Source: an uncultured Polaromonas sp. (GTDB lineage: Bacteria; Pseudomonadota; Gammaproteobacteria; Burkholderiales; Burkholderiaceae_C). Taken from it: a stretch of 30,826 nucleotides of DNA. A model generated the notes under the pieces. That model worked only from the letters and a program-made list of their open reading frames with translations. It had not been told where the DNA came from and ran no database searches. The DNA lies in NCBI GenBank assembly GCA_965365965.1, contig CBDUEA010000001.1, positions 1 to 30,826 of the forward strand, written 5' to 3'. Of the stretch, positions 14,761-30,826 are shown one piece after another. The position numbers and the translations under genes were made by a program. Numbering within the stretch: position 1 is the first letter of the stretch; every line of letters starts with the position of its first letter.

Positions 14761-15873
14761 CTAGGCTGCCAACATCTGGGCCACTTTTTGCCCAATCGCC
14801 AGCGGGCTGGTTAAACCTGGCGACTCGATGCCAAACAAGTTGACCAAGCCTGCCACACCATGCTCTCTAGGACCTTGAATCATGAAGTCTTTGGCGGCCT
14901 CATGCTGGGCGTTGATTTTGGGGCGTATGCCGGCGTAGCCTTCAATCAGAGCACCGTCTTGCAATTGTGGCCAATATTTGCGGACTTCGGCATAAAAAGC
15001 ATCTCCGCGACTGGGGTCGACCACCAAATTCTCGGCAGATTCAACCCATTGGGTGTCTGGGCCAAATTTTGCCTGGCCTCCCAAATCCAGCGTCAAATGC
15101 ACCCCAAGACCAGCAGCTTCGGGCACAGGGTAAATCAATCGACTGAACGGCGATCGACCGCTCAAGGTGAAATAGTTGCCTTTGCAGTAAAACTCGGGCG
15201 GTACAAAAGACGGATCTAAACCCTGAATACGCCGCGCCAATGTAGGCGCGTGCAAACCGGCGGCGTTGATGACCGTGCTTGCCTCCAATTCCGTACCATC
15301 TAATGCTACTATTTGAATAGCATCTTTGACATAAGATACGCCGGCTACAGCCGAATTTAGTACCACCATCCCGCCTGCATTCTCCAAATCACCTTGCAGC
15401 GCCAGCATCAGCGCGTGGCTATCCACAATACCCGTGCTGGGTGAGTGGACGGCGGCCACACATTCAAGTTCTGGTTCCAAGGTACTAGCCTGTTCGCGAC
15501 TCAGCATCACCAAATCTTGTACGCCATTGGCAGCAGCTTTGGCAATAATGCCTTGTAACTGAGCGACCTGATCTTCATTGGTTGCAACAATCAGCTTGCC
15601 GCAGCGTTTGTAGCCAATGCCGCGTTTTTCGCAATAGTCGTAAAGCATTGCCCTGCCCTGCACGCAAAGCGCTGCTTTCAGTGAACCTTGCGGGTAATAA
15701 ATACCGGCGTGGATGACCTCACTGTTGCGCGAGCTGGTTCCAGTGCCGATGGCGTTGGCGGCCTCCAAAACCATGACTTCTCGTCCCGCAAATTGAGGCG
15801 ACAGAGCCATGGCACGTGCTACAGCAAGACCGACGGCACCTGCACCAATGACAACACAATCAATCTTTTCCAT
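14761..15873 (-). CDS. FAD-dependent oxidoreductase, L-2-hydroxyglutarate dehydrogenase (LhgO)-like
   Basis: [39 protein letters not shown] 15873 (MEKID) avoids overlap with the upstream permease. Confidence 0.88.
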
Positions 15874-15893
15874 GCTCGAATTGTGCCCTACTA

Positions 15894-17192
15894 TCAGCTC
15901 TTCTTTGGTCCAAACAGACCAAGTAGCCAATACAGACCAATCGCTCCAAAAGTAGCGGTTCCGATGCCACCGAGTGCAAAACCACCAAATTTGAGCGTGA
16001 AATCACCTGTGCCCAAAATCAAGGTAACAGCGGCCACGATCAAATTGCGGTTGTTTGAAAAGTCTACTTTGTTGTCGACCCAAATTTTTGCACCCGCAAT
16101 AGCAATCAACCCAAACACAACAATACTGACGCCGCCCATGACAGGCAGGGGTATGGTCTGAATGACTGCACCGAATTTAGGTGAGAAACCTAAAGCCAAG
16201 GCGATCAAACCTGCCACAAAAAACATGGCCGTTGAGTAGATTTTGGTAGCCGCCATGACGCCAATGTTTTCCGCATAGGTGGTCACACCCGTACCGCCTG
16301 CGGCACCGCTCACCATCGTAGCCATGCCGTCACCGATAAAGGCTCTGCCCATGTATTGGTCTAAATTGCGCCCCGTCATGGCAGTCACGGCTTTAATGTG
16401 GCCTAAGTTTTCCGCCACTAATATGATAGCAACAGGTGCAATCAGCAGCATAGCGTTAGCGTTGAACACAGGGGAAGAAAAGTTGGGCATACCGATCCAA
16501 GCAGCATTCATCAAGCCTGAGAAATCCATTGGTTTACCCAGACCCATACCGTTTGTTAGCGCGGCGTAAATCAAACTGGCAATGATCAAGCCGACCAAAA
16601 TCAAAAGTCGTTGCACCATACCTTTGGTGGCAACGGCTACCAAGCCGACGCTGACAAAGGTGACCACTTGCATCCAAGCATCAAAATTGCCTGCTGCCAT
16701 GTTTTTGACGGGAATACTGGCCAAGTTCAAGCCAATCACTGCGACCACCGCGCCTGTCACCACGGGCGGCATCAGCCGCTCAATCCAGCCAGTACCAATA
16801 GCTTGCACTATCAAGCCAATCAACACATATACAGCACCGCAGGCAATGATTCCGCCCAAAGCTATACCTAGGTTGGCATTTGGACCTTTGCCAGCGTAGG
16901 CAGTTGCGGCTATCACCACACCAATAAATGCAAAACTAGAGCCTAAATAGCTAGGAACTTTGCCACCTGTGATGATGAAGAACATCAAGGTGCCGACACC
17001 GCTCATTAAAATGGCAATATTTGGATCAAACCCCATCAAAATCGGTGCGAGCACGGTTGAACCAAACATCGCAATGACATGTTGTACGCCCAATACGGTC
17101 GTTTGCCCCCATGGAAGGCGCTCGTCTGGCGCGATGACACCTCAACCCGCTAAGGTAGAGGCAGGTTTTTCCGTCCAACTGAATAATCCCAT
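15894..17192 (-). pseudogene. Nucleobase:cation symporter-2 uracil/pyrimidine permease (RutG/UraA-like) with an in-frame TGA at codon 17
   Basis: ATG 17192 with SD AGAGGAG reads MGLFSWTEKPASTLAG*GVIAPDERLPWGQTTVLGVQHVIAMFG... in the same frame as the ORF-track product. NCS2 motifs QH, AENLGH and TTYAENIGV are present. The stop at 17142-17144 could be a real mutation or a sequencing error. Confidence 0.75.
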
Positions 17193-17339: not shown

Positions 17340-18014
17340 ATGACAAATTCGACCTCCTCTATGAAAAGCTTTCACCAATACCCACAACTTTATGTGCTGG
17401 AGCATCCACTGGTGCAACACAAACTCAGTCACATGCGTGACGTGCGAACCTCGACGCGCACCTTCCGCCAGTTGTTGCGTGAGCTGACATTGCTGATGGG
17501 GTACGAAATCACGCGTGACCTACCGCTAACAACAGAGCGCATCATGACCCCATTAATAGAAATGGATGCACCTGTCATTGCCGGGAAAAAAATTGCCATC
17601 GTTCCTGTTTTACGCGCAGGTTTGGGTATGGCAGAAGGGCTGATGGATTTGATACCTTCTGCACGCCAAGGCCACATTGGTATGTACCGTGGACCGGATC
17701 ATAGACCTGTGGAATATTACGTGCGACTGCCTGAAATTGAGGGTCGCATCTTCATTGTTTGCGACCCGATGCTGGCAACAGGTTACTCTGCGGTTGGCGC
17801 CGTTAATATTTTGATAAGCCGCGGTGTTGCACCTGAAAATATTCGGTTTTTAGCATTGGTGGCAGCACCAGAAGGCGTTAAAGTTTTTCATTCAGCACAT
17901 CCAACTGTACCCGTTTATGTCGCTGGTTTAGATTCGCACTTGAACGAAAAAGCATACATCGTACCTGGCTTGGGTGATGCCGGTGATCGAATTTTTGGCA
18001 CCAAACACGAATAA
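17340..18014 (+). CDS. upp: Uracil phosphoribosyltransferase
   Basis: [19 protein letters not shown]-binding [24 protein letters not shown]. Start may be ATG 17361. Confidence 0.97.
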
Positions 18015-18027
18015 AAAGATTTTCGAG

Positions 18028-19464
18028 TTATTTACTGTTAGCCCAACCACCACCCAAAGTTTTGTAAAGTGTGACCTGACTCTGTGATAACGCTAATCGA
18101 GTTTGAACAACAGCTTGTTGAGCCGCAAATAACGAACGCTGGGCATCAAGCAAATCTAAAGAACTCGAAACCCCTTGTTGGTAACGTAAATCTGATAATT
18201 TAAAGCGAACTTCTTCAGCATTGGTTTGAGCTTGTTGAGAACGCAATTGTTCGGCTAGAGTAGACCGTGTAACAAGTGCATCAGCTACTTCTCGAAAAGC
18301 GGTTTGAATCGTTTTGTCATATTGATTCAAAGCAATATCGCGTGCAACCTTCGCTGAGTCTAATCCTGACTGATTTCTACCAGCATCAAAAATTGGTAAA
18401 AGCAATTGCGGAGCCAAGGTCCAGCCCCAAGAACCGTTTTTCAATAAACCTGAAAGCTGACTACTGATACTGCCAGCGCCCACAGTTAGAGAAATTCTTG
18501 GGAAAAATGCTGCGCGAGCTGCACCAATGTTGGCATTAGAGGCCAACAATAACTGTTCGGCTTGTTGGATGTCAGGTCTATTGACAATTAAATCTGAAGG
18601 CAAACCCGCAGGTATATTCTCCATATTCAGCGCATCATTCACTGCAGCAACTTTTGCAGGAGTGTTGGATAAAATTCCTGACAATTCCTTATCTAAAGGC
18701 TGACCAACCAACAAGACCAACGCATTTTCATCTAAAGCACGCTGACGCGTTTGCTGTGCAAAGGCTATTCGAGCCGTCTCTAACAGCGATTCTGCTAAGC
18801 GAAATTCAACCTCAGAACTTACCCCATTCTCAAATCGAAGTTGACTTAGTTTGAAGGATGCTTGACGCGACACCAGTGTCTTACGTGTAATTTCAATCAA
18901 TGCATCATCTGCCAGAATATTCAGATAGGTATTCGCCACAGAAGCAATCAAATTAATTTGTGCCGTTTTTCGTCCCTCTTCTGTCGCTAAATATTGCGCC
19001 AAGGCGACTTCTTTTAAGCTGTTGATGCGTCCAAAAAAATCTAACTCATACGCGGTAACTGCTAATCCGACGTTGTACAAATTTGTACTACTGCCGTTTG
19101 CTGCTGGAGTACGAGATCCATTTAATACAGCACTCACGCTTGGAAATTGATCCGCACGTTTGATTTGATACTGGGCTTTCGCCAGCTCAATGTTCAGTAC
19201 GGCGATACGGAGATCGCGGTTACTGATCAAAGACCGTTCAATTAATTGTTTGAGTTTGATATCTGTAAAAAAATTCTGCCAAACTAGATCGGTGACCTGA
19301 GATTTAGCCACTGAAACCAACTCATTCGAGTTTGATTTTATGTAGTCAGGAAAACTTTCCGACACTGGGAGCGCAGGACGCTCGTAAGTGGGAACCATGG
19401 AGCAACCCGTAGTTAACAAAACGACGCTTGTCGCAAGAAGTTTGTGAAAGTTATATTTACGCAT
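18028..19464 (-). CDS. Efflux outer-membrane factor lipoprotein (OprM/NodT-like)
   Basis: Lipobox LLTTGC; YELDFFGR, RPDIQQAEQLL, ARAAFFPRISL, LYKTLGGGW. ATG 19464 overlaps the RND stop by 8 nt. Confidence 0.94.
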   Translation of the reverse strand: MRKYNFHKLLATSVVLLTTGCSMVPTYERPALPVSESFPDYIKSNSNELVSVAKSQVTDLVWQNFFTDIKLKQLIERSLISNRDLRIAVLNIELAKAQYQIKRADQFPSVSAVLNGSRTPAANGSSTNLYNVGLAVTAYELDFFGRINSLKEVALAQYLATEEGRKTAQINLIASVANTYLNILADDALIEITRKTLVSRQASFKLSQLRFENGVSSEVEFRLAESLLETARIAFAQQTRQRALDENALVLLVGQPLDKELSGILSNTPAKVAAVNDALNMENIPAGLPSDLIVNRPDIQQAEQLLLASNANIGAARAAFFPRISLTVGAGSISSQLSGLLKNGSWGWTLAPQLLLPIFDAGRNQSGLDSAKVARDIALNQYDKTIQTAFREVADALVTRSTLAEQLRSQQAQTNAEEVRFKLSDLRYQQGVSSSLDLLDAQRSLFAAQQAVVQTRLALSQSQVTLYKTLGGGWANSK

Positions 19465-22400
19465 TGCCAGCTCCTTTGGCAACTTCGCGCTTATCTTGTT
19501 CTTCTATTCCAGCATCTTGTGCATGTTTTGAATAAATTTTGCGCTGCCGCTCACTTCCTTTGAAGAATCCGCGTATCACGACAAAGAAAACGGGTACGAA
19601 AAATACAGCCAAAGCTGTTCCAGTGATCATGCCGCCAATCACGCCTGTCCCAATCGCGCGTTGACTCGCGGAACTGGCACCGGTTGCAATCGCCAAAGGT
19701 AATACACCCAGCATGAATGCCATAGAAGTCATAATAATAGGTCGAAAACGAAGATGTGCAGCAGCTAGCGCTGATTCAATTACCCCTTTGCCTTGTGCTT
19801 GAAGGTCCTTGGCAAATTCGATAATCAAGATTGCGTTTTTTGCGGATAAACCAATGATGGTAATTAGACCGACTTGAAAGTACACATCATTGGCATAACT
19901 ACGCAAAAAGGTTGCCAATAAGACCCCAAGGACTCCAAGCGGTACAACCAAAATGACAGCCAATGGTATTGACCAGCTCTCATAAAGAGCTGCAAGGCTT
20001 AAAAACACAGCCAAAATAGCAAATCCATACAAAATGATTGCCTGCGAGCCAGCAAGTTTTTCTTCTCTTGACTGACCCGTCCACTCATAACCGAAACCTG
20101 GCGGCAGTTGAGCAGCAAGTTTTTCCATTTCAATAATTGCAGCACCAGTGCTATACCCAGGTGCAGCACCGCCACTGATGCGCATTGCAGGGTAGCCGTT
20201 ATAGCGAATTGTCTGCATGGCGCCCTTGATCCAGCTGGTAGAAGCAAATGCAGATATGGGTAATTGTTGCCCTTGCTTATTGCTGACATTCAGTTGAAGA
20301 ATATCCTCAGGCTGCATGCGGTTAGGAGCATCAGCCTGCACCACAACACGCTGCAAACGCCCTTGATTCGGAAAATCATTCACGTAACTAGAACCCAAAC
20401 CCGTAGAAAGTACCGAATTGATAGTATCTAAACTGACACCCAATGCGTTTGCCTTGTCACGATCAATATTGATTTGTAGCTGCGGCGCATCCTCTATTCC
20501 ATCAGGTCGAACTTGAGCCAGAATAGCACTTTTCGATGCCAAACCTAAGAGTTGATTTCTTGCCGCTAACAAAGCATCATGCCCAGCACCTGCACGATCC
20601 TGGAGACGAAATGTAAAACCGCTGGCAGAACCTAATTCAGGAATTGGCGGTGGGCTCAAAGGAAATATTGAAGCATCGCGAATGCCGGAGAGTGCCCCAT
20701 ATGCTCGCCCAGCCAATGCCTCCGCAGATTGGCCTTTTTCTTTTCGCTCTGACCAATCTTTCAAGGTCGTAAAGGCCAAAGCAGCATTTTGTCCTTGACC
20801 TGAAAAACTGAAACCCAATACACTGACCATGCTCTGCACTTCGGGCTGCTTCAAAATATTAGCTTCAACCTGCTCAACGACATTGCTCGTACGCTCCAAA
20901 GTTGCTCCTGGCGGAAGTTGAACGTTAACCAGCATGGTTCCTTGATCCTCACCAGGCAAAAATGAAGTTGGTAGTCTTGTATAGATTAAAGCCACAACGC
21001 CCACGATGGCGACATAAAGTATCAAATATCTACTAGCACGTCCAAGAATACGCGCCACCAGTCCTTCATAATTTTTGGCAGTGCGTGTAAATCCGCGATT
21101 AAACCAGCCAAAGAAACCGGTCTTAGCGTGGTGATGACCAGCATCAACCGGCTTAAGCAGTGTTGCACACAGCGCTGGCGTTAAAGAAAGTGCTAGAAAG
21201 GCTGAAAATGCGATTGATGTCACCATCACCGTAGCAAACTGCCTGTAGATATTTCCGACAGAACCTGCGAAAAATGCAAGTGGCACAAACACAGAAATCA
21301 ACACGACTGTTACCCCAACAATAGCACCTGAGATTTGCCCCATTGCTTTACGTGTGGCATCCAGTGGCGATAAGCCTTCTTCGCTCATGATGCGCTCAAC
21401 ATTCTCTACCACCACAATAGCATCATCCACCACAATACCAATGACTAAAACCATGCCAAACATGGTCAAAACATTGATAGAAAACCCCAACGCCAATAGT
21501 GTGGCAAAAGTTCCGAGTAAAGCGATCGGCACAACAATGGTTGGGATGATGGTGTAACGCCAGTTTTGTAAAAACAAAAACATCACTAAAAACACCAGGA
21601 CGACAGCCTCTATCAATGTCTCAGCCACTTGCCGAATCGAAATGCTCACAAAACGTGAGCTGTCGTATGGAATAGCGTAACTAACGCCTTGGGGAAAATA
21701 CACTTGCAACTCATCCATCTTGGCGCGAACTGCCTTCGCTGCTGCCAGAGCATTTCCGCTAGGTGTGAGCTGAACACCAATGCCGGTAGAGGGTTTGCCA
21801 TTCAGTCGGGCAGAAGTTGCGTATGTTTGCGCGCCCAAATCAATGCGCGCTACATCTTTCAAGCGCACGGTCGATCCGTCGGTATTCGAGCGCAACACAA
21901 TATTTCCAAACTGCTCTACATTAGTAAGCTGACCATTCACAACCACCGTAGCAGTGATGCCTTGACCAGCAACGTTTGGAAGATCGCCTATTGTTCCTGA
22001 CGAAATCTGAGCATTTTGTGCACGAATAGCGTTGGTGACATCGCTCGCTGAGAGCGTCAAACCAGCTAGTTTTGCAGGGTCAATCCAAATGCGCATCGCA
22101 CGCTCAGTGCCAAACAACTGCACTTGACCTATGCCGGGCAAACGTTGCAGTTCAGGAATGACGTTGCGCGAAGCATAATCACCCAATCCCACTGGATCAA
22201 CAGCAGGATTATTTGAAGAAAGCATCGTAAACAGCAAAAAGTTGGAGCGCGACTTATCGACACGTACGCCCTGCTGAGTCACACTTTGTGGCAAACGTGG
22301 CGCTGCACGTGACAAACGGTTTTGAACGTCAACTTGAGCCAAATCTGGATTGGTTCCAGTTTCAAAAGTCAAAGTGATGCTCCCCGAACCGTTTGCTTGA

Positions 22401-22645
22401 GCAACAGACTCCATATAAATGAGGCCAGGGGATCCATTCATTTCACGTTCAATCACGCTCAACACGCTGTCCTCTAATGTGCTGGCTGATGCACCTGGAT
22501 AACTGGCAGAAACGATGATAGAGGGTGGAGCCACTGGTGGGTACTGAGCAATCGACAATTGCGTGATTGCGACACTACCCAAAACCACAATGAAAAGGGC
22601 AATCACCCAGGCGAAGATAGGTCGATCAATAAAAAATTTGGCCAT
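19457..22645 (-). CDS. HAE1 RND multidrug efflux permease (AcrB/MexB-like)
   Basis: MAKFFIDRPIFAWV start; proton-relay residues in VDDAIVVVEN, SAKNAIL and RFRPIIMT are intact; 1062 aa. Confidence 0.97.
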   Translation of the reverse strand: MAKFFIDRPIFAWVIALFIVVLGSVAITQLSIAQYPPVAPPSIIVSASYPGASASTLEDSVLSVIEREMNGSPGLIYMESVAQANGSGSITLTFETGTNPDLAQVDVQNRLSRAAPRLPQSVTQQGVRVDKSRSNFLLFTMLSSNNPAVDPVGLGDYASRNVIPELQRLPGIGQVQLFGTERAMRIWIDPAKLAGLTLSASDVTNAIRAQNAQISSGTIGDLPNVAGQGITATVVVNGQLTNVEQFGNIVLRSNTDGSTVRLKDVARIDLGAQTYATSARLNGKPSTGIGVQLTPSGNALAAAKAVRAKMDELQVYFPQGVSYAIPYDSSRFVSISIRQVAETLIEAVVLVFLVMFLFLQNWRYTIIPTIVVPIALLGTFATLLALGFSINVLTMFGMVLVIGIVVDDAIVVVENVERIMSEEGLSPLDATRKAMGQISGAIVGVTVVLISVFVPLAFFAGSVGNIYRQFATVMVTSIAFSAFLALSLTPALCATLLKPVDAGHHHAKTGFFGWFNRGFTRTAKNYEGLVARILGRASRYLILYVAIVGVVALIYTRLPTSFLPGEDQGTMLVNVQLPPGATLERTSNVVEQVEANILKQPEVQSMVSVLGFSFSGQGQNAALAFTTLKDWSERKEKGQSAEALAGRAYGALSGIRDASIFPLSPPPIPELGSASGFTFRLQDRAGAGHDALLAARNQLLGLASKSAILAQVRPDGIEDAPQLQINIDRDKANALGVSLDTINSVLSTGLGSSYVNDFPNQGRLQRVVVQADAPNRMQPEDILQLNVSNKQGQQLPISAFASTSWIKGAMQTIRYNGYPAMRISGGAAPGYSTGAAIIEMEKLAAQLPPGFGYEWTGQSREEKLAGSQAIILYGFAILAVFLSLAALYESWSIPLAVILVVPLGVLGVLLATFLRSYANDVYFQVGLITIIGLSAKNAILIIEFAKDLQAQGKGVIESALAAAHLRFRPIIMTSMAFMLGVLPLAIATGASSASQRAIGTGVIGGMITGTALAVFFVPVFFVVIRGFFKGSERQRKIYSKHAQDAGIEEQDKREVAKGAGNA

Positions 22646-22657
22646 GCAAAGTGCCCC

Positions 22658-23923
22658 TTACTTCGCAGCCGCTGTATTGGCGGTAGCGTTAGCACTATTA
22701 TCAGCAGGTGTGCTTGTGCTACCAGTAGCAACTGCAACCCCAGGCTGCCAAGGAACCGGTTTGACGGATGCGCCAGGCTGTATTTTTTGGAAACCATCAA
22801 CCATAACCTGCTCTCCCGCCTTGAGACCGTCGATTACAACCCATTGCGCGCCCTTGGCAGAACCTATCTTGACTGTACGAGGAGCCACTTTTCCATCGCT
22901 ACCAACCACCATGACTGTGTCGCCTTGCCCCGTACGCGTTACCGCCTGTTGCGGTAATAAAATGGCATTAGAAGCTTGCGCTTGCTCAAGTCGAACTCGG
23001 ACATAGAGCCCAGGCAGTAACTGTCCTGTTGGATTTGGAATCTCGGCTCTCAAAGTAACTTGGCCTGTCGTCGGATCAACGCTCAAGTCAGAGAACAAAA
23101 GTCGTCCTTGTAAAGGATATTCCGTACCATCTTCAAGGACCAACCGGACACTGGCAGCATTCGCACCACTGGCCCGTTTAAATTGACCACTGTTCATGGC
23201 CGCTTTTAGCTTCATTACGTCCGATGCTGACTGCGTAAAGTTGATGTACATCGGATTAATTTGCTGAATGACTGCCAGTGGCGTTGCTTCACTCTGCCCT
23301 ACAAGCGCTCCTTCGGTGACCAAGGCACGCCCGATGCGGCCTGAAATTGGTGCGGTCACAGATGAATAACCTAAAGTGATGCTCGCAGTTTGAACGTTGG
23401 CCTTTCCAACGGCTACATCTGCAGCTGCTTGTTTTTGCGCCGCTACAGCATTTGCATATTCCTGCTTGCTGATCGCATTAGCTTCGACAAGAGGTTTGTA
23501 CCTATCAGCCAATTCAGTCGTCTGTGCCAAGTTTGCTTCGGCGCGTGCTTGATTTGCTTTTGCGCTGGCCAGAGCAGCTGCATAAGGCGCCGCATCAATT
23601 TTAAAAAGTGATTGACCGACTTTCACGTCACTACCTTCTTTGAACACTCTTTTTTGTAAAATCCCAGCGGTACGCGCCCTAACTTGAGCGATACGAGAGG
23701 CTTCAAGACGCCCAGGCAGCTCAGTAAGTAGACCAACATCACCAAGTTTAACCATGACTACACCAACTTGAGCCATCGGAGGAGCCTTGCCACTGGGTCC
23801 AGCAGGTGCAGATTCTTTGCTACATCCGGATAACGCAAATACACATAGTGCAAGCGAAGAAAGGGATGATTTAAGCATCCATGGATTCGACAAAAATGAT
23901 TTGGAAACACTAAACATAGTCAT
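22658..23923 (-). CDS. RND periplasmic adaptor lipoprotein (AcrA/MexA-like)
   Basis: Lipobox ALSGC; ELPGRLEA, APISGRIG, VDPTTG, LLPGLYVR, GLKAGEQV. Confidence 0.95.
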   Translation of the reverse strand: MTMFSVSKSFLSNPWMLKSSLSSLALCVFALSGCSKESAPAGPSGKAPPMAQVGVVMVKLGDVGLLTELPGRLEASRIAQVRARTAGILQKRVFKEGSDVKVGQSLFKIDAAPYAAALASAKANQARAEANLAQTTELADRYKPLVEANAISKQEYANAVAAQKQAAADVAVGKANVQTASITLGYSSVTAPISGRIGRALVTEGALVGQSEATPLAVIQQINPMYINFTQSASDVMKLKAAMNSGQFKRASGANAASVRLVLEDGTEYPLQGRLLFSDLSVDPTTGQVTLRAEIPNPTGQLLPGLYVRVRLEQAQASNAILLPQQAVTRTGQGDTVMVVGSDGKVAPRTVKIGSAKGAQWVVIDGLKAGEQVMVDGFQKIQPGASVKPVPWQPGVAVATGSTSTPADNSANATANTAAAK

Positions 23924-24241
23924 TCAACATCTCGATTTAAAAATATTGCGATATTGGCAATGAACGAAATTTCATCATTCAAAATTTCACGCTCAGATAA
24001 AGCACCAAGGTAACCTCAAAGGGCTAGTTTACATATTTTTCGAGTTATTTAAATTAGCTTATCTAATCTTTATAAGTACTTGGGGAAAAGCGTAGGCAAT
24101 TTGATTCATTCATACAGAGGACATATGCCCTACTCACATCGATTAGCTAAGCGTTCAATGATTTAGACTTATGAGGATCATGCATAATGTTATGCTTTGG
24201 CGCCGCATTGTGCGCTTTTTCATCAAGAAAGCCCTCTGAAA

Positions 24242-25585
24242 ATGAAGTATGAGTCTGTCGATAGCTTCCTAGAACATGTAGCACAACGTAACCCCGGTCA
24301 GCCAGAGTTTCTGCAAGCCGTCACCGAAGTCATGGAAAGCTTGTGGCCATTTATCGAAAAGCATCCCAAGTATGCTGAACACAGCTTGCTGGAACGCTTG
24401 ATAGAACCAGAACGCGTGATCATGTTCCGTGTCTCATGGACAGACGATCACGGCACGGTACAGGTTAACCGTGGCTACCGGATTCAGCACAGCATGGCGA
24501 TTGGCCCTTATAAAGGCGGTCTGCGCTTTCACCCATCGGTTAACCTCTCGGTGCTCAAGTTTTTGGCATTCGAGCAGACCTTCAAAAATGCACTAACCAC
24601 CCTGCCTATGGGTGGCGGTAAGGGTGGTTCTGACTTCGACCCCAAAGGCAAGAGTGCTGGCGAAGTCATGCGTTTCTGCCAAGCCTTTGCCAGTGAGCTG
24701 TTCCGCCACATTGGTGCTGACACGGACGTGCCAGCAGGCGATATCGGCGTGGGCGGCCGCGAGGTGGGATTTATTGCCGGCATGTACAAGAAGCTCAGCA
24801 ACCGCGCTGACTGCGTGTTCACTGGGAAGGGCCTGTCTTTTGGTGGCTCGTTGATCCGCCCAGAAGCCACAGGTTACGGCACCGTTTACTTCGCTGCAGA
24901 AATGCTCAAGACTCGTCGCAAGACATTCGATGGATTGCGCGTTTCGGTTTCAGGCTCAGGTAACGTTGCTCAATATGCGGTGGAAAAAGCCATGGCACTG
25001 GGCGCCAAGGTGGTTACGGTGTCTGACTCCAGCGGAACCATCGTCGATGAAGAAGGCTTCAACACTGAAAAACTCATTATTTTGATGGATGTGAAGAACC
25101 ATCTCTATGGCCGTCTGAGCGACTACGCCAAGCGCACTGGGGTGAAGTTCGAGGCAGGCAAGACGCCTTGGCATGTGCCGGTGGACATTGCCTTGCCCTG
25201 CGCAACTCAAAACGAGCTGACCCTAAGTGACGCTGCTACTCTGATCAAAAATGGGGTGATTTGCGTGGCTGAAGGCGCGAACATGCCTTCAACCATCGAA
25301 GCCGCCAAGGCCTTTGAAGCCGCGGGCGTCCTCTATGCACCGGGTAAGGCCAGTAACGCTGGTGGTGTGGCTACATCGGGTCTTGAGATGAGCCAAAACG
25401 CCATGCGTTTGAACTGGACTGCTGAAGAGGTGGACAACCGTTTGCTGATGATTATGCAAGGCATCCATGCAGCATGCCTGAAGCACGGCAGCCGTGCTGA
25501 TGGCTCGGTGAGTTACATCGACGGTGCTAACGTAGCCGGCTTCGTCAAGGTAGCCGACGCCATGTTGGCGCAAGGCGTAATCTAA
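24242..25585 (+). CDS. gdhA: NADP-specific glutamate dehydrogenase
   Basis: GPYKGGLRFH, LPMGGGKGG, DVPAGDIGVG, RPEATGYG, GSGNVA, EGANMP, KASNAGGVA. ATG 24242 is preferred over 24197. Confidence 0.97.
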   Translation: MKYESVDSFLEHVAQRNPGQPEFLQAVTEVMESLWPFIEKHPKYAEHSLLERLIEPERVIMFRVSWTDDHGTVQVNRGYRIQHSMAIGPYKGGLRFHPSVNLSVLKFLAFEQTFKNALTTLPMGGGKGGSDFDPKGKSAGEVMRFCQAFASELFRHIGADTDVPAGDIGVGGREVGFIAGMYKKLSNRADCVFTGKGLSFGGSLIRPEATGYGTVYFAAEMLKTRRKTFDGLRVSVSGSGNVAQYAVEKAMALGAKVVTVSDSSGTIVDEEGFNTEKLIILMDVKNHLYGRLSDYAKRTGVKFEAGKTPWHVPVDIALPCATQNELTLSDAATLIKNGVICVAEGANMPSTIEAAKAFEAAGVLYAPGKASNAGGVATSGLEMSQNAMRLNWTAEEVDNRLLMIMQGIHAACLKHGSRADGSVSYIDGANVAGFVKVADAMLAQGVI

Positions 25586-25688
25586 AGAATACTCTCTTCA
25601 ACACGCAATAGATCATACTTAGATAAGGTGATTTTTGGATCACTTTAACAAGAGACATATACTTAGAACAACAGGAATACATACGACC

Positions 25689-26933
25689 ATGAGTGGATAC
25701 AACGTAGTAGCAGCAAAAAATACGATGAATGCGCCAAACAGTAATGGCTCATATTCACAATCAGTCGCTTTCTCTCACTACAACAACCTATCAGCTCAAT
25801 TACCTATCGATCCAAAAACTGGTCAATTGGTGGCTGGCGGCGTCAATGAGCAAGCGAAACAGTGCTTTGACAATATCAAAGCGGTTCTAGAAAGTATCAA
25901 CCATGTAATGGACGATGTCGTCAGGATCACGGTATTTGTCAAAAATATTGCTGATGTCGCCGCTGTTGACAACGTATTTACCAGCTTCTTCACAGGCTAT
26001 GTACCGACACGTACCACCGTTGCTGTGGCAGCTTTGCCTAACGGCGCTTTGGTACAAATTGAAGCGCTGGTATCGCATGGCGAAGGCACCATCCCCAATG
26101 CACCGCAGGCTGGTGACCTTGTTAAAGTTGCAAGAAATACAAGCAATGCACCAATAAATGAGCTGTCTACACAAACGGTCGCCTTCTCGCACTACAACAA
26201 CCTTTCAGCTCAATTACCCATTGACCCAAAAACAGGGCAGCTGGTTGCAGGTGGTACAAAAGAGCAAGCCACACAATGCTTCAACAACATTAAAGCCATT
26301 TTAGAAAGCATCGGCCATGTTATGAACGATGTGGTACGAATCACCATCTTCGTTAAAAACTTAGCCGATACCGAGAATGCAAAAGACGTTTATAAAACTT
26401 TTTTCCCAAGCTATGTTCCGGCACTCACAAACGTTGTTGTGACCGCGTTGCCGATGGACGCTTTGGTGCAAATTGAAGCCGTTGTGTCGCACGGCGACGG
26501 CACACCCCCGCAACCTGTTGAAGACGCGCGCAACATCGTCATTAAAGCCAACAACACAGACACTGCTCCCAAAGGCCCCTACTCACAATCTGTTGCCTTC
26601 TCGCATTACAACCACATTTCAGCGCAATTACCTGTAGATGCTAAAACTGGTCAGCTTGTCGGCGGTGGCGTTAAAGAACAAGCAAGCCAGTGCCTGAAGA
26701 ATATCAAATCAATTGTGGAAAGTATTGATCATGTGATGGGAGATGTTGTCAAAATCAATATCGCCCTCAAAAACATCACAGATATTGACGCTGTAGAAGA
26801 AACTTACGCAACATACTTTCCCGGAGGAGTTCCAGCGCGCAGAATCATTGGCGTATCAGCACTACCTAAAGACGCATTGGTCCAAATTGATGCAGTCATT
26901 TCAAACGCTGAAGGAACTCCGCCAAAAGCGTAA
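25689..26933 (+). CDS. Three tandem RidA/YjgF/UK114 domains in one polypeptide
   Basis: Three repeats of SQ..AFSHYN..SAQLP.D.KTG...EQA.QC..NIK...DVV.I..P.R...ALP..ALVQI[ED]A. ATG 25689 is the likely start (414 aa). Confidence 0.92.
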   Translation: MSGYNVVAAKNTMNAPNSNGSYSQSVAFSHYNNLSAQLPIDPKTGQLVAGGVNEQAKQCFDNIKAVLESINHVMDDVVRITVFVKNIADVAAVDNVFTSFFTGYVPTRTTVAVAALPNGALVQIEALVSHGEGTIPNAPQAGDLVKVARNTSNAPINELSTQTVAFSHYNNLSAQLPIDPKTGQLVAGGTKEQATQCFNNIKAILESIGHVMNDVVRITIFVKNLADTENAKDVYKTFFPSYVPALTNVVVTALPMDALVQIEAVVSHGDGTPPQPVEDARNIVIKANNTDTAPKGPYSQSVAFSHYNHISAQLPVDAKTGQLVGGGVKEQASQCLKNIKSIVESIDHVMGDVVKINIALKNITDIDAVEETYATYFPGGVPARRIIGVSALPKDALVQIDAVISNAEGTPPKA

Positions 26934-26990
26934 CTTGCATTAGTAAGTGTTTAAATAGATACTTATTAAACAATATTTAGCCCCAGAAAC

Positions 26991-27029
26991 AAAAAAAGGG
27001 ACTTGGCAGTGATGCTAATTCCTTTTTTT
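26991..27029. terminator. Bidirectional rho-independent terminator
   Basis: AAAAAAAGGGA-C-TTGGC-AGTGAT-GCTAA-TTCCTTTTTTT: imperfect stem with A7 and T7 flanks, between the RidA gene (+) and the tRNA fragment (-). Confidence 0.75.
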
Positions 27030-27052
27030 ATAACTAATTTATTTGTTGATTT

Positions 27053-27100
27053 TGGTGGGCAGTTCAAATTTCGAACTTGTGACACCTGCAGAGTGAATGC
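27053..27100 (-). pseudogene. Degenerate 3' fragment (positions 29-76) of tRNA-Val(CAC); candidate att scar
   Basis: Minus strand reads GCA-TTCACTC-TGCAG-GTGTC-ACAAG-TTCGAAA-TTTGA-ACTGCCC-A-CCA, which matches tRNA segment lengths (7,5,5,5,7,5,7,1,3). No D-arm or 5' acceptor strand upstream. Confidence 0.8.
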
Positions 27101-27587
27101 CTTTATTATTGTCGGCGCCGATTGAATCTTGACCCAAGGGGGTGCGGACAATTTCTCACCTCTATAGCTATAACTTCTTTATTACACTTACACTTCTTAA
27201 GTTAAGAAATATATATATATAAAGAGAGTAGTAAATTAAATATTACATATAGGGTTTCAGAGCCAAGCGGAATATAACTAATTAGCGAACATAGGATCGA
27301 CGTTTTAAACGGCATTTGCTGGCATAGCGTCCAGCAATGAAGCTCCAAACTTCTTGTCACCTGCCAGTTTCTGTACTTCATTGGCGAGTTGTTCGATCGC
27401 AGTAGCCAGTACCATCGGATCACCGGCAGGTCAGACCAAAAGGTAGTGGAGCCCTATATCCTGCACACTGATTCTTGCTCTTTAAGCCTACAAACAAAAA
27501 AGCTTTAATTGCACCTTAGGTGAAGGTAAATTCAACTTCTAATTGTTCATATAGACTCAATGCTTTTACATTTAAAGGAAAACATCC

Positions 27588-27734
27588 ATGAATCTTCATC
27601 TCGCTCCAATCGTATCTTTGATTGCTGGCATTCTTATTTTAGTGGCGCCTCGTCTGCTGAACTACATTGTGGCGATTTACCTGATCATCATTGGCCTGAT
27701 TGGTTTGCTTGGCACGGGTTCGCTGCGCCTGTAA
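27588..27734 (+). CDS. DUF3096-like small membrane protein (48 aa), not in the ORF track
   Basis: MNLHLAPIVSLIAGILILVAPRLLNYIVAIYLIIIGLIGLLGTGSLRL; SD AAAGGA at 27574-27579; family motif LIAGILIL..PRLLNYIVA.YLI. Confidence 0.88.
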   Translation: MNLHLAPIVSLIAGILILVAPRLLNYIVAIYLIIIGLIGLLGTGSLRL

Positions 27735-28332
27735 ATTCAACCATAAATTATTCAAATTTCAGTTTGAAGTTGTCAAATTAAACATTTGGACTTTCAATTG
27801 CATTTTTAGCTAAACGAAATTGTAGTTACCTCTTTAGACTGGACATTTTATTTTTCTGCCAAATGAGTAATTTATGAAGCAAAGAACGGTGTATATATGC
27901 CCCAATTTCGTCAGCAAGTGGTCTAATTTGTCGGTATTGGAATTCCTGTGCTGCTGCTCCTGATTAATGCTGAAGGCTCTGCTAACTCCCTCAAGACAAC
28001 GAAGTTAGTCAACGCATAAGTACCTTCAGCGACTTGACCATCGTTTCGGGCCACAAAGCTGGTGACTTGATGAATACCGTTCAAGTTCACTTCAGAGCTG
28101 AGCTTTATAGATGGAATTGCATCGTCTTCAATTTAATTTCTCTTATCGAAAATTGTTGAACTGATTGCCACAGCGCAACAAGGAGTAACTTGAAATATAA
28201 GAATTGCGCACCAGATAAATACTATTAAAGACTGAGAAGCTAAGCTCGCCAACCCTAAGCTTGAAGTTGCTCCAGAAGCCTCACCCAAATCTACACCGCA
28301 CCCAATTCACCTACAACTGAAAGAAAAAACCC

Positions 28333-29016
28333 ATGAAAAAAATCCTGATGGTGCTGACCTCGCACGACCAATTGGGCAACACCGGTGCGAAAACCGGTTT
28401 CTGGCTAGAAGAATTTGCGGCGCCTTATTACGTGTTCAAGGATGCTGGTGCCGAAATCACCTTGGCATCTCCCCTAGGTGGACAACCACCGCTCGACCCC
28501 AAGAGTGACGATGCCGCTTCACAAACCGACGCTACCCGTCGTTTCAAGGCCGATGCTGATGCCCAAGCGCTATTGGCCAGCACCCAAAAATTAAGCGACA
28601 TGAATACTGACGCTTTTGATGCTCTGTTTTACCCAGGCGGCCATGGCCCACTGTGGGATCTGGCGGAAGACAAAAACTCCATTGCCCTGATTGAAACCAT
28701 GCTTTCCGCGGGCAAACCGGTTGCCGCAGTTTGTCACGCACCTGCCGTACTGCGTCACCCAAAAATAGACGGTAAATCCGTGGTGCAGGGCAAGAAGGTG
28801 ACTGGGTTTACCAACACCGAAGAATCCGCTGTGGATCTGACCGACATCGTTCCCTTTCTGGTGGAAGACATGCTCAAAAGCAACGGCGGTCATTACTTCA
28901 AAGGCGCAGATTGGCAACCCTATGTTTTGACTGATGGCTTGTTAATCACAGGGCAAAACCCAGCTTCTTCTGAGCCAGCGGCACATGCACTCCTAAAGGT
29001 TCTCAAAAAACTGTGA
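28333..29016 (+). CDS. DJ-1/PfpI (type 1 glutamine amidotransferase-like) protein, Hsp31/glyoxalase III-like
   Basis: LTSHDQLG.TG..TGFWLEE, PGGHGP, nucleophile AVCHAP, TGQNPAS. Confidence 0.92.
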   Translation: MKKILMVLTSHDQLGNTGAKTGFWLEEFAAPYYVFKDAGAEITLASPLGGQPPLDPKSDDAASQTDATRRFKADADAQALLASTQKLSDMNTDAFDALFYPGGHGPLWDLAEDKNSIALIETMLSAGKPVAAVCHAPAVLRHPKIDGKSVVQGKKVTGFTNTEESAVDLTDIVPFLVEDMLKSNGGHYFKGADWQPYVLTDGLLITGQNPASSEPAAHALLKVLKKL

Positions 29017-29127
29017 GGTAGCACACCTGCGGTGTCACATAGCACTGGAATGAATCCGACTTGGTATGTTGAATCCGACTCGGTATGCATTACCAGCACA
29101 CGCTCGTCATTTTTGTATAAAACCACC

Positions 29128-29871
29128 ATGACCGACCACTCTGACTTTTGGCAAGACCTTTACCAACAAAGCCAACAATCCACCCTTGAGGTTGGGTCAC
29201 TTCCTGTTTTGCGCGTGAACCAAGATCTGCAAGTCGACGCCCAAGTAAGCTCTGCAACAGCACCGTGGGTCGCATCTCCTGCAGCAGGGGTTCGGCGGAT
29301 TCTCTTGGAACGCGACGGTGGCGAAATCACCACGCGCGCGACCAGTCTGGTTGCCTACCGCGCCGGCAGTCGATTCAATGCCCACACGCATCCCCAAGGC
29401 GAAGAGATATTGGTTTTGAGCGGCGTCTTTTCAGACGAAAGTGGAGACAACGCAGCCGGCAGCTACTTGCGCAACCCACCGGGTTCTTCGCACGCCCCTT
29501 TTAGCGACGAAGGCTGCCTGATTTTTGTGAAGCTCCAGCAATTTTCTCCACAAGACAGCGTACAGCTAAGGTTGGGTGCGCAGGAGACTAGTTGGCCGTT
29601 TACGCAGTTGGCAATGACCAGACGGTTGCTTTTTGAGCGACCCAATGAGCGCGTGGAGTTGATCCATTTTGGGCAAGCCGCCCAACTGCCTTCTGACCTA
29701 GGTCTGCAGGGTTTGGAGATATTGGTCTTGAAAGGTGAGTTGACTGGGACTGATACCAATTACCCAATTGGCACATGGCTGCGCTGCGCATCATCACAGA
29801 CGCTCACCTATCACGCCCAAGCTGGAACTGAGATTTACGTCAAAAGTGGGCACTTGGGAGCGTTTGCATGA
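29128..29871 (+). CDS. ChrR-like bicupin (cupin_7) protein
   Basis: PWVASP..GV.R..L, RATSLV.Y..GSRF..HTH..GEEILVL.G, YLRNPPGSSH.P, IFVKL.QF, then a second cupin (GLEILVLKG...GTWLR...YVKSGHL). ATG 29128 is preferred over GTG 29032. Confidence 0.88.
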   Translation: MTDHSDFWQDLYQQSQQSTLEVGSLPVLRVNQDLQVDAQVSSATAPWVASPAAGVRRILLERDGGEITTRATSLVAYRAGSRFNAHTHPQGEEILVLSGVFSDESGDNAAGSYLRNPPGSSHAPFSDEGCLIFVKLQQFSPQDSVQLRLGAQETSWPFTQLAMTRRLLFERPNERVELIHFGQAAQLPSDLGLQGLEILVLKGELTGTDTNYPIGTWLRCASSQTLTYHAQAGTEIYVKSGHLGAFA

Positions 29872-30826
29872 GTGTTCGCGGCTTAACCTCTACATCAACG
29901 CCCGCCTTGATCGTGGGTGGTGGCCTAGCTGGTTTGTATGCAGCCTATCAGCTTGAGAAAGCTAAGATCCCATATGTATTGTGGGAAGCACAACCGAGAT
30001 GGGGTGGACGCATTCTTTCTCTGCCTATTGACGGCGATTCAGACCTTGGTTTTGACCTAGGTCCTACTTGGTTCTGGCCTCACCAACACCGCATGCAACG
30101 TCTTTGTGCTGAATTGGGTCTAACAAGCTTTGAACAACCAGTGGCGGGTGATGTGATGTACCAACTCACGCCAGGACAAGCACCTGAACGCTCAGTGGGA
30201 GCTGGCTCAATGGTGTCTTACCGCCTTGAAAACGGCATGCAAACCTTGATGACTGCGCTGGTGAAACGCCTAGACCCGTCATCCTTGAAGTTAAATCATG
30301 CGCTTACCAAACTCACCAGATCAGGCAAGGTCTGGACGGCAACAACCAACCACTTGGGAGAAACGCGAGAGCTCGAAGTGGGGCAGCTGATCCTAGCCAC
30401 TCCACCACGAAAGGTTGCGCCGCTGTTGCACCCTCATTTACCTGCCCGACTGCATGCGGAGTTAAACGCCACGCCTACCTGGATGGCAGCACAGGCCAAG
30501 TTTGTGGCAGTCTATGAAACCCCGTTTTGGCGCCAAGCAGGCCTAGCAGGTCAAGTGTTCAGTCGGGTTGGGCCTATGGTAGAAATATACGATGCCTCGT
30601 CATCCCCACATAACGGTTATGCCCTCTTTGGCTTTTTAGGTGTTCCCGCCCAAGTCAGACTCCAGCATAGTCAGGCTGCGGTTGAGGCCGCTTGCTTGAA
30701 TCAATTGATATCCGTTTTTGGGCCGCTAGCCAGCAATCCGCGTACCATAGGACTGAAGGACTGGGCCCAGGACGATTGGATTGTGAGCGAACAAGATCTC
30801 TCAGAGACACCTCAGCATCCTGACTT
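29868..30826 (+). CDS. Flavin monoamine-oxidase-family FAD oxidoreductase, 3'-truncated by the window (absent from the ORF track)
   Basis: Open from ATG 29868 (ATGA overlap with the cupin stop) to the window end: IVGGGLAGLYAA, EAQPRWGGR, FDLGPTWFWP, NGMQTL, KFVAVYETPFWR, DWAQD. Confidence 0.9.
   Translation, partial: MSVRGLTSTSTPALIVGGGLAGLYAAYQLEKAKIPYVLWEAQPRWGGRILSLPIDGDSDLGFDLGPTWFWPHQHRMQRLCAELGLTSFEQPVAGDVMYQLTPGQAPERSVGAGSMVSYRLENGMQTLMTALVKRLDPSSLKLNHALTKLTRSGKVWTATTNHLGETRELEVGQLILATPPRKVAPLLHPHLPARLHAELNATPTWMAAQAKFVAVYETPFWRQAGLAGQVFSRVGPMVEIYDASSSPHNGYALFGFLGVPAQVRLQHSQAAVEAACLNQLISVFGPLASNPRTIGLKDWAQDDWIVSEQDLSETPQHPD

Follow-up and report, generated by a model that had tools for sequence, protein, structure and literature searches.

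Genomic islands integrated in tDNA, recognizable by a regenerated tRNA gene and a displaced fragment, are reportedly the subject of an account by Williams in Nucleic Acids Res in 2002 (30:866). In the Islander principle, a regenerated tRNA gene and a displaced tRNA fragment mark the ends of an island, the incoming element having restored the gene that it split, and an integrase and two intact att sites are required of each island (Hudson, Lau and Williams 2015, PMC4383910). An attP centred on the anticodon defines the class to which 2083 of 3919 islands belong, and tandem arrays of two or more islands at one tDNA number 125 (PMC4383910).

Here we analyse a window of 30,826 nt, the whole of contig C1 in a fragmented metagenome-assembled genome (MAG; 2.38 Mb, 529 contigs, 79% complete) of an uncultured Polaromonas sp. 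A displaced 3' part of tRNA-Val(CAC) occupies 27053..27100 on its minus strand, and we consider it, with a probability of roughly 0.8, to be the old attachment-site scar of a tyrosine-integrase element that inserted into this tRNA gene. Such a scar is a routine and well-known footprint of integrase insertion at a tRNA hot spot, and no new mechanism is implied.

Results

A decayed 3' part of tRNA-Val(CAC) and its terminator

The minus-strand string quoted in the preliminary description runs from 27100 to 27053, just where that description had placed it, and corresponds to canonical tRNA positions 29-76 (gene bases 28-75), CCA included, of tRNA-Val(CAC). Its alignment with the intact 75-nt gene of relatives is ungapped, with 44 of 48 bases identical (E 8e-12, vs the whole 2.4-Mb MAG), and the homology reaches no farther than 27100. 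The match to the tRNA is lost at base 27101, and the similarity does stop within the anticodon stem, as had been proposed. This confirms the fragment as a genuine, mutated and displaced 3' part of tRNA-Val(CAC).

Four substitutions separate the fragment from the gene of the genus: A37T, G45T, C61T and U65A. Three sites of decay had been pointed out earlier, namely the pyrimidine at position 37, the T in place of C61 and the mismatch of A49 with A65, and they prove to be real derived changes, to which G45T adds a fourth. All four differences are taken as derived because A37, G45, C61 and U65 are kept in each of the 15 intact genes that were read in relatives. Across the genus the gene hardly varies, with identical 3' halves in 10 of the 14 copies first read and solely pairing-preserving changes in the remaining four. 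Two of the four changes in the fragment were counted as breaking tRNA rules. A working tRNA would have neither a pyrimidine at 37 nor T at C61 nor a mismatch between A49 and A65, and the four changes together are decay that set in once the fragment fell out of use, matching the original proposal. The fragment has no present tRNA function, since its 5' half and promoter are absent and its T arm is disrupted. One prediction failed: the 5' strand of the acceptor stem, expected to read GGGCAGT, is in fact GGGCGGT, which gives a G5-U68 wobble.

Neither ARAGORN, run on the window and thus over the fragment site, nor Rfam at E<=10 over 26000-28500 reported a tRNA. This silence is no counter-evidence, because tools built for whole tRNAs miss half genes. 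The fragment region had no match in the E. coli collection, and among the 21 tRNAs assembled in the MAG it showed generic T-arm similarity only, a comparison made uninformative by the fact that tRNA-Val(CAC) is not assembled whole there.

Downstream of the CCA, some 75-85 nt share homology with the terminators that stand behind the tRNA-Val genes of relatives. They include a hairpin with A-run and T-run flanks at 26989..27031, evident from alignment to relatives and from its folds, at -14.6 kcal/mol on the minus strand and -16.6 on the plus strand, vs -22 to -24 in relatives. The terminator described earlier is therefore upheld by its homology, but it is decayed and weaker than its counterparts, and a simple consensus terminator scan did not call it. 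We infer that it could still stop the convergent triple-RidA gene that ends at 26933.

Somewhat farther on, a degenerate copy of a GTGTCTAA-type motif lies at 26948..26972 on the minus strand, as judged by local alignment to genomes G010 (p ~0.001, 1000 shuffles) and G004 (p 0.05). In both of these genomes a repeated motif of the GTGTCTAA type comes after the live tRNA and its terminator, and the DNA match of the window to them extends to 26966. A similar repeated motif is present in both arms of the complete island of G023. We read 26948-26972 as an arm site, now decayed, for the integrase of an earlier island. Accessory cargo comes next in both G010 and G004, and in G004 it takes the form of efflux genes in place of upp or the gene for a DAO-type oxidoreductase. 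At L044:8078-9844 (contig G004:C160), beyond the live tRNA-Val, the terminator and a repeated GTGT(T/C)TAA motif, come genes for a small secreted product and an efflux protein of the outer membrane, which look like the start of a metal-efflux cluster, i.e., island cargo.

The live gene and the loss of synteny

The region 26500-28700 was searched as DNA in 40 related genomes. Matches to 27052-27100 were many, at 88-92% identity, and every one of them ended at 27100; most are intact 75-nt tRNA-Val(CAC) genes by ARAGORN. Synteny accordingly stops exactly at 27100, as expected of the break that had been proposed: relatives continue into the 5' half of the tRNA and on to exonuclease-fdx-hscA, and the window beyond 27100 is unrelated AT-rich DNA.

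A matching intact tRNA-Val(CAC) had also been predicted, and half of it was found. Contig C502 (1736 nt) of the same MAG carries hscA, fdx, a gene for an RNase T-type exonuclease and then positions 1-46 of tRNA-Val(CAC), where the contig ends. The 5' part thus stands beside its native upstream flank (the order hscA-fdx-exonuclease-tRNA is the same in seven relatives), but the gene is cut at position 46. Positions 1-46 on C502 are 100% identical to the consensus, A37 and G45 included, so the MAG holds two differing copies of positions 29-46, a consensus copy next to the native flank and a mutated copy next to the terminator in the window. Positions 47-76 of the live tRNA are not assembled, C502 is neither physically linked to the window nor oriented relative to it, and a protein look-up with the C502 exonuclease, made to extend the contig, returned no record. 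The break of the contig at this point is accounted for by low coverage (~3-7x in the best runs) together with identical tRNAs from co-occurring relatives at much higher depth. With unlinked contigs, a MAG that is 79% complete and a depth of ~5x, C502 and the window could in principle represent different strains; nevertheless, their divergence from relatives, at 76% nt for C502 and 72-79% for the core genes of the window, fits one species. Neither of these two checks, both set out in the preliminary description as ways to refute its reading, went against it, and that reading is supported.

Equivalent fragments and integrases in relatives

Fragments of the 3' part of tRNA-Val(CAC) that lack a 5' half occur in four other genomes, namely G002, G018, G023 and a further MAG (locus L061). 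They start at gene bases 26-28 (canonical 27-29), no more than 2 bases from the break in the window, and are identical or near-identical to the tRNA of their own genome. The fragment of G023 lies 89 kb from the intact gene, and a 392-aa tyrosine integrase (PF00589, L035:940-2118) starts 110 nt from its truncated side and reads away from it. Homologues of this enzyme, 42-46% identical to it and 88% to each other, are found ~93-94 nt from the fragments of G018 and L061. More distant integrases stand beside tRNA-Val-like fragments at two loci of G172 (50-52% identical) and in G281 (39%), at ~120-380 nt from the truncated side. The island had been said to extend to higher coordinates, and this agrees with G018, G023 and L061, where the integrase is on the side equivalent to the higher coordinates of the window.

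The fragment and the intact gene of G002 share one contig and one orientation, 30.5 kb apart. Here (G002:C10) the intact tRNA-Val(CAC) (L033:15794-15868) forms one end of a 30.5-kb island, and a 49-nt fragment (L032:2264-2312) that matches the genome's own tRNA across its span forms the other. A gene for a ParM-like actin adjoins the fragment, Rieske and ferredoxin-reductase genes adjoin the tRNA, and a search of G002:C10 for a PF00589 integrase found none. In the MAG under study, contig C344 (G000:C344:1-2506) opens within the C-terminal part of a tyrosine integrase that is 62-74% identical to the G023 and G172 enzymes, after which a gene for a 711-aa UvrD-like helicase lies on the opposite strand. 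This C-terminus is the sole member of the family in the MAG, and its contig is unlinked to the window; C344 may be part of a different island at the tRNA-Val locus.

The left-hand block and the neighbours of the terminator

The preliminary description took the fragment as the boundary of an island. Foreign DNA is indeed present on its right, but the left side is strain-specific as well, and no border between core and island runs through the fragment. The core genome ends instead at 18014, the stop of upp, and a 9-kb block at 18015-26977 is wedged exactly between that stop and the tRNA terminator. By Pfam, its genes (18015..26933) encode an outer-membrane factor, an RND pump, a membrane-fusion protein, GdhA and the triple-RidA protein, and this block was not found in 18 genomes of the same genus. 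GC content is 43-47% at 18-21 kb. The triple-RidA gene has its nearest homologues (66-73% identity) outside its own family, in others of the order, and no tRNA-Val was found beside those. Within the family, 9 sampled genomes yielded no homologue, nor did the 18 of the genus.

Behind the tRNA terminator, relatives natively have one of two genes, that for the DAO-type oxidoreductase (14761-15930 in the window) or upp (17340-18014). The latter is the case in G006, G007 and G011. The upp stop, 9 kb away from the terminator in the window, directly adjoins it in G006, and this lends support to a stack of islands. The displaced tRNA part would then have come with an earlier island, now reduced to 18015-26977, and the fragment would be the junction between two islands, a model to which we give slightly better than even odds. 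As the arm downstream of the fragment looks island-borne, such a junction is a likelier identity for the fragment than the outermost edge of an island, and 18015-26977 is probably the leftover of the earlier one.

Genome G018 bears on the same question. Its terminator after the live tRNA is of the "upp type", and the displaced fragment keeps a terminator of the "DAO type". Because terminator type in G018 travels with the downstream gene, islands of this family appear to carry their own terminator behind their copy of the tRNA. On two contigs of this genome, G018:C288 (L048) and G018:C227 (L049), upp is directly behind the live tRNA and the displaced fragment is beside the DAO gene. Thus uraA-upp, which looks like core in the window and in G006, G007 and G011, may itself have come as island cargo. 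No displaced fragments were found beside DAO or upp in the stretches fetched from G004, G010, G017, G012, G002 and G001.

The stacking model must assume a deletion at 18015, since no second fragment or integrase is found at that outer end, where 18015-18027 provide only 13 nt. The same finding favours a single-island history along the lines of the preliminary description, in which the fragment and its terminator are native and were displaced by one right-hand element, the left 9 kb having arrived by an unrelated route such as homologous recombination. The homology of the terminator to those behind the intact tRNAs of relatives is in keeping with this, as are G007 and G011, in which ordinary genes (desaturase, kynureninase) lie between upp and the terminator without any fragment. 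Ordinary metabolic genes at this spot in two genomes suggest that it may vary by other routes. We nevertheless think a single island the less likely of the two, because 26948-26972 matches the G010/G004 type, in which G004 goes on to accessory efflux genes and not to upp or DAO, and because it is the downstream gene, rather than the tRNA, that the terminator type goes with in G018.

The right-hand element and its junction

The first 75 nt past the break (27101..27175, plus strand) resemble the remnant of an island-side (P) arm. They contain a 28-nt motif, 27145-27172, that is also present in the G018 arm between fragment and integrase, with 24 of 27 aligned bases identical and one gap (score 34, null maximum 29 in 500 shuffles, p<0.002), and a shorter core of it is present in L061. 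Beyond this short motif, the P-arm region showed no similarity to the islands of relatives by blastn or tblastx. The position held by the integrase in relatives corresponds to an AT-rich, mostly non-coding stretch at 27176..28332 (GC ~39-42%). A tblastn search of 27101-28332 with the G023 and G018 integrases (E<=10) revealed no remnant, and the 3.7 kb of the element that are visible, 27101-30826, contain neither PF00589 nor an integrase-like frame. A gene for a 48-aa DUF3096 membrane protein (27588..27734, plus strand; PF11295, E 3.4e-18) stands intact and alone within the eroded stretch.

The plus-strand genes at 28333..30826, identified by Pfam, encode a DJ-1/PfpI protein, a ChrR-type cupin and a flavin amine oxidase that is cut by the contig end; they are not core and are probably island cargo. 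The cupin was not found in 18 genomes of the same genus, and copies of the DJ-1 gene, ~70% identical, are located elsewhere in 3 of the 18. A metagenome scan with the cupin found relatives at <=62% identity only, none from the same island, and an exact-protein look-up of DJ-1 gave just one low-coverage contig of 1.7 kb.

The end of an IS3-family element, comprising its terminal region and the first codons of orfA, is preserved at 27816..27941 on the plus strand, 81% identical over 127 nt to C361:2436-2562. The intact relative in the MAG (G000:C361:1279-2562) carries both orfA (HTH_Tnp_1) and orfB (rve). With an IS remnant 716 nt from the break, the tRNA could conceivably have been truncated without site specificity, by IS-mediated deletion or insertion, and never regenerated, C502 then coming from another binned strain. 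tRNA-Val(CAC) may be dispensable, as tRNA-Val(UAC), which can read GUG, is present in the MAG, and the fragmented assembly leaves its contigs unlinked. This history is very improbable, however. In four other genomes, three of them with an integrase next to the fragment, the fragment starts within 2 bases of this break; the arm motif common to G018 is contained in the first 75 nt past the break, and the IS remnant is away from it; and the divergence of C502, close to that of the window core, fits one species.

The junction itself is seen in two Logan contigs, one covering 27034-27420 with no differences and the other 27053-27928. They come from separate runs of one study, which may be the source samples of the MAG and so are not fully independent evidence. 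Both run across 27100/27101, at a depth as low as that over the remainder of the window, and carry the private substitutions of the fragment, and hence 27100/27101 is no assembly join. We therefore reject, as having almost no probability, both a chimera formed at a tRNA-like stretch, which low coverage, an assembly graph tangled by the identical tRNAs of co-occurring relatives and the overlap of high-depth consensus-tRNA contigs with 27053-27100 might suggest but which the private substitutions rule out as a join through shared words, and a chance resemblance to a tRNA, which is at odds with 44 of 48 matching bases at E 8e-12 and a homologous flanking terminator.

Discussion

We suggest that the attachment-site scar arose in the following way. 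An element with its own copy of positions 29-76 would have inserted into tRNA-Val(CAC), and this copy would now complete the live gene, the 5' part of which is on C502. The previous 3' part would have been pushed away together with its terminator and would then have drifted at four sites. The inserted DNA would run from 27101 to higher coordinates, and its integrase end would since have eroded, leaving an arm of ~75 nt and a nearby IS3 remnant but no integrase. If islands were stacked, the 3' half would have come from an earlier one and been displaced when a further element, with an arm of the G018 type, inserted; a later deletion would have removed the first island's integrase and outer scar. 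The similarities between arm motifs are short (25-28 nt).

Tyrosine recombinases such as lambda Int, Cre and Flp need identity in the overlap segment. The adjacent arm contains no integrase, and one of the substitutions, A37T, affects the anticodon loop, where crossover probably takes place; excision is therefore unlikely, and it is plausible that the fragment is no longer able to excise. As the integrase end of the right-hand element is eroded and without an integrase, the scar appears to be inert.

More tentatively, and at somewhat less than even odds, the tRNA-Val(CAC) locus could be a site of layered accretion used by two or more sub-lineages of a single integrase family. Their islands would have the integrase by the displaced fragment rather than by the live tRNA, carry their own terminators and bring cargo of the uraA-upp type that becomes fixed as apparent core once an att scar is deleted. 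Were this true, the mutated fragment would be a datable boundary between layers. The scar in any case marks the DNA from 27101 onward, and probably 18015-26977 too, as horizontally acquired, and horizontal origin bears on how the triple-RidA gene and the DJ-1/cupin/amine-oxidase trio are to be read. It also illustrates that a half tRNA unreported by ARAGORN and Rfam was correctly recovered by reading the raw sequence without tools.

Like the islands in Islander, the window has a 3' tRNA fragment accompanied by the tRNA's own downstream sequence, with foreign DNA at the truncated side, and complete examples with a tyrosine integrase are found in relatives. Unlike them, its visible part is without an integrase, its fragment bears four substitutions and the partner is on another contig. 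The locus agrees with the anticodon-centred class, as the block of identity extends from position 29, in the 5' strand of the anticodon stem, through the loop to the 3' end. Tandem arrays are matched by strain-specific DNA on both sides of an internal fragment, with a G018-type arm on one side and a G010/G004-type arm on the other, although in a formal tandem array each member has a fragment and an integrase, and the left block of the window has neither at 18015. In G023 and G018 the fragments are identical to their own tRNA and the integrase is ~95-110 nt away, whereas the copy in the window is mutated and its integrase is lost. The islands of G023 (89 kb) and G018 are nevertheless like the one in the window in having the same target gene, a start at most 2 bases apart and the island on the same side, and with G018 the arm motif is held in common.
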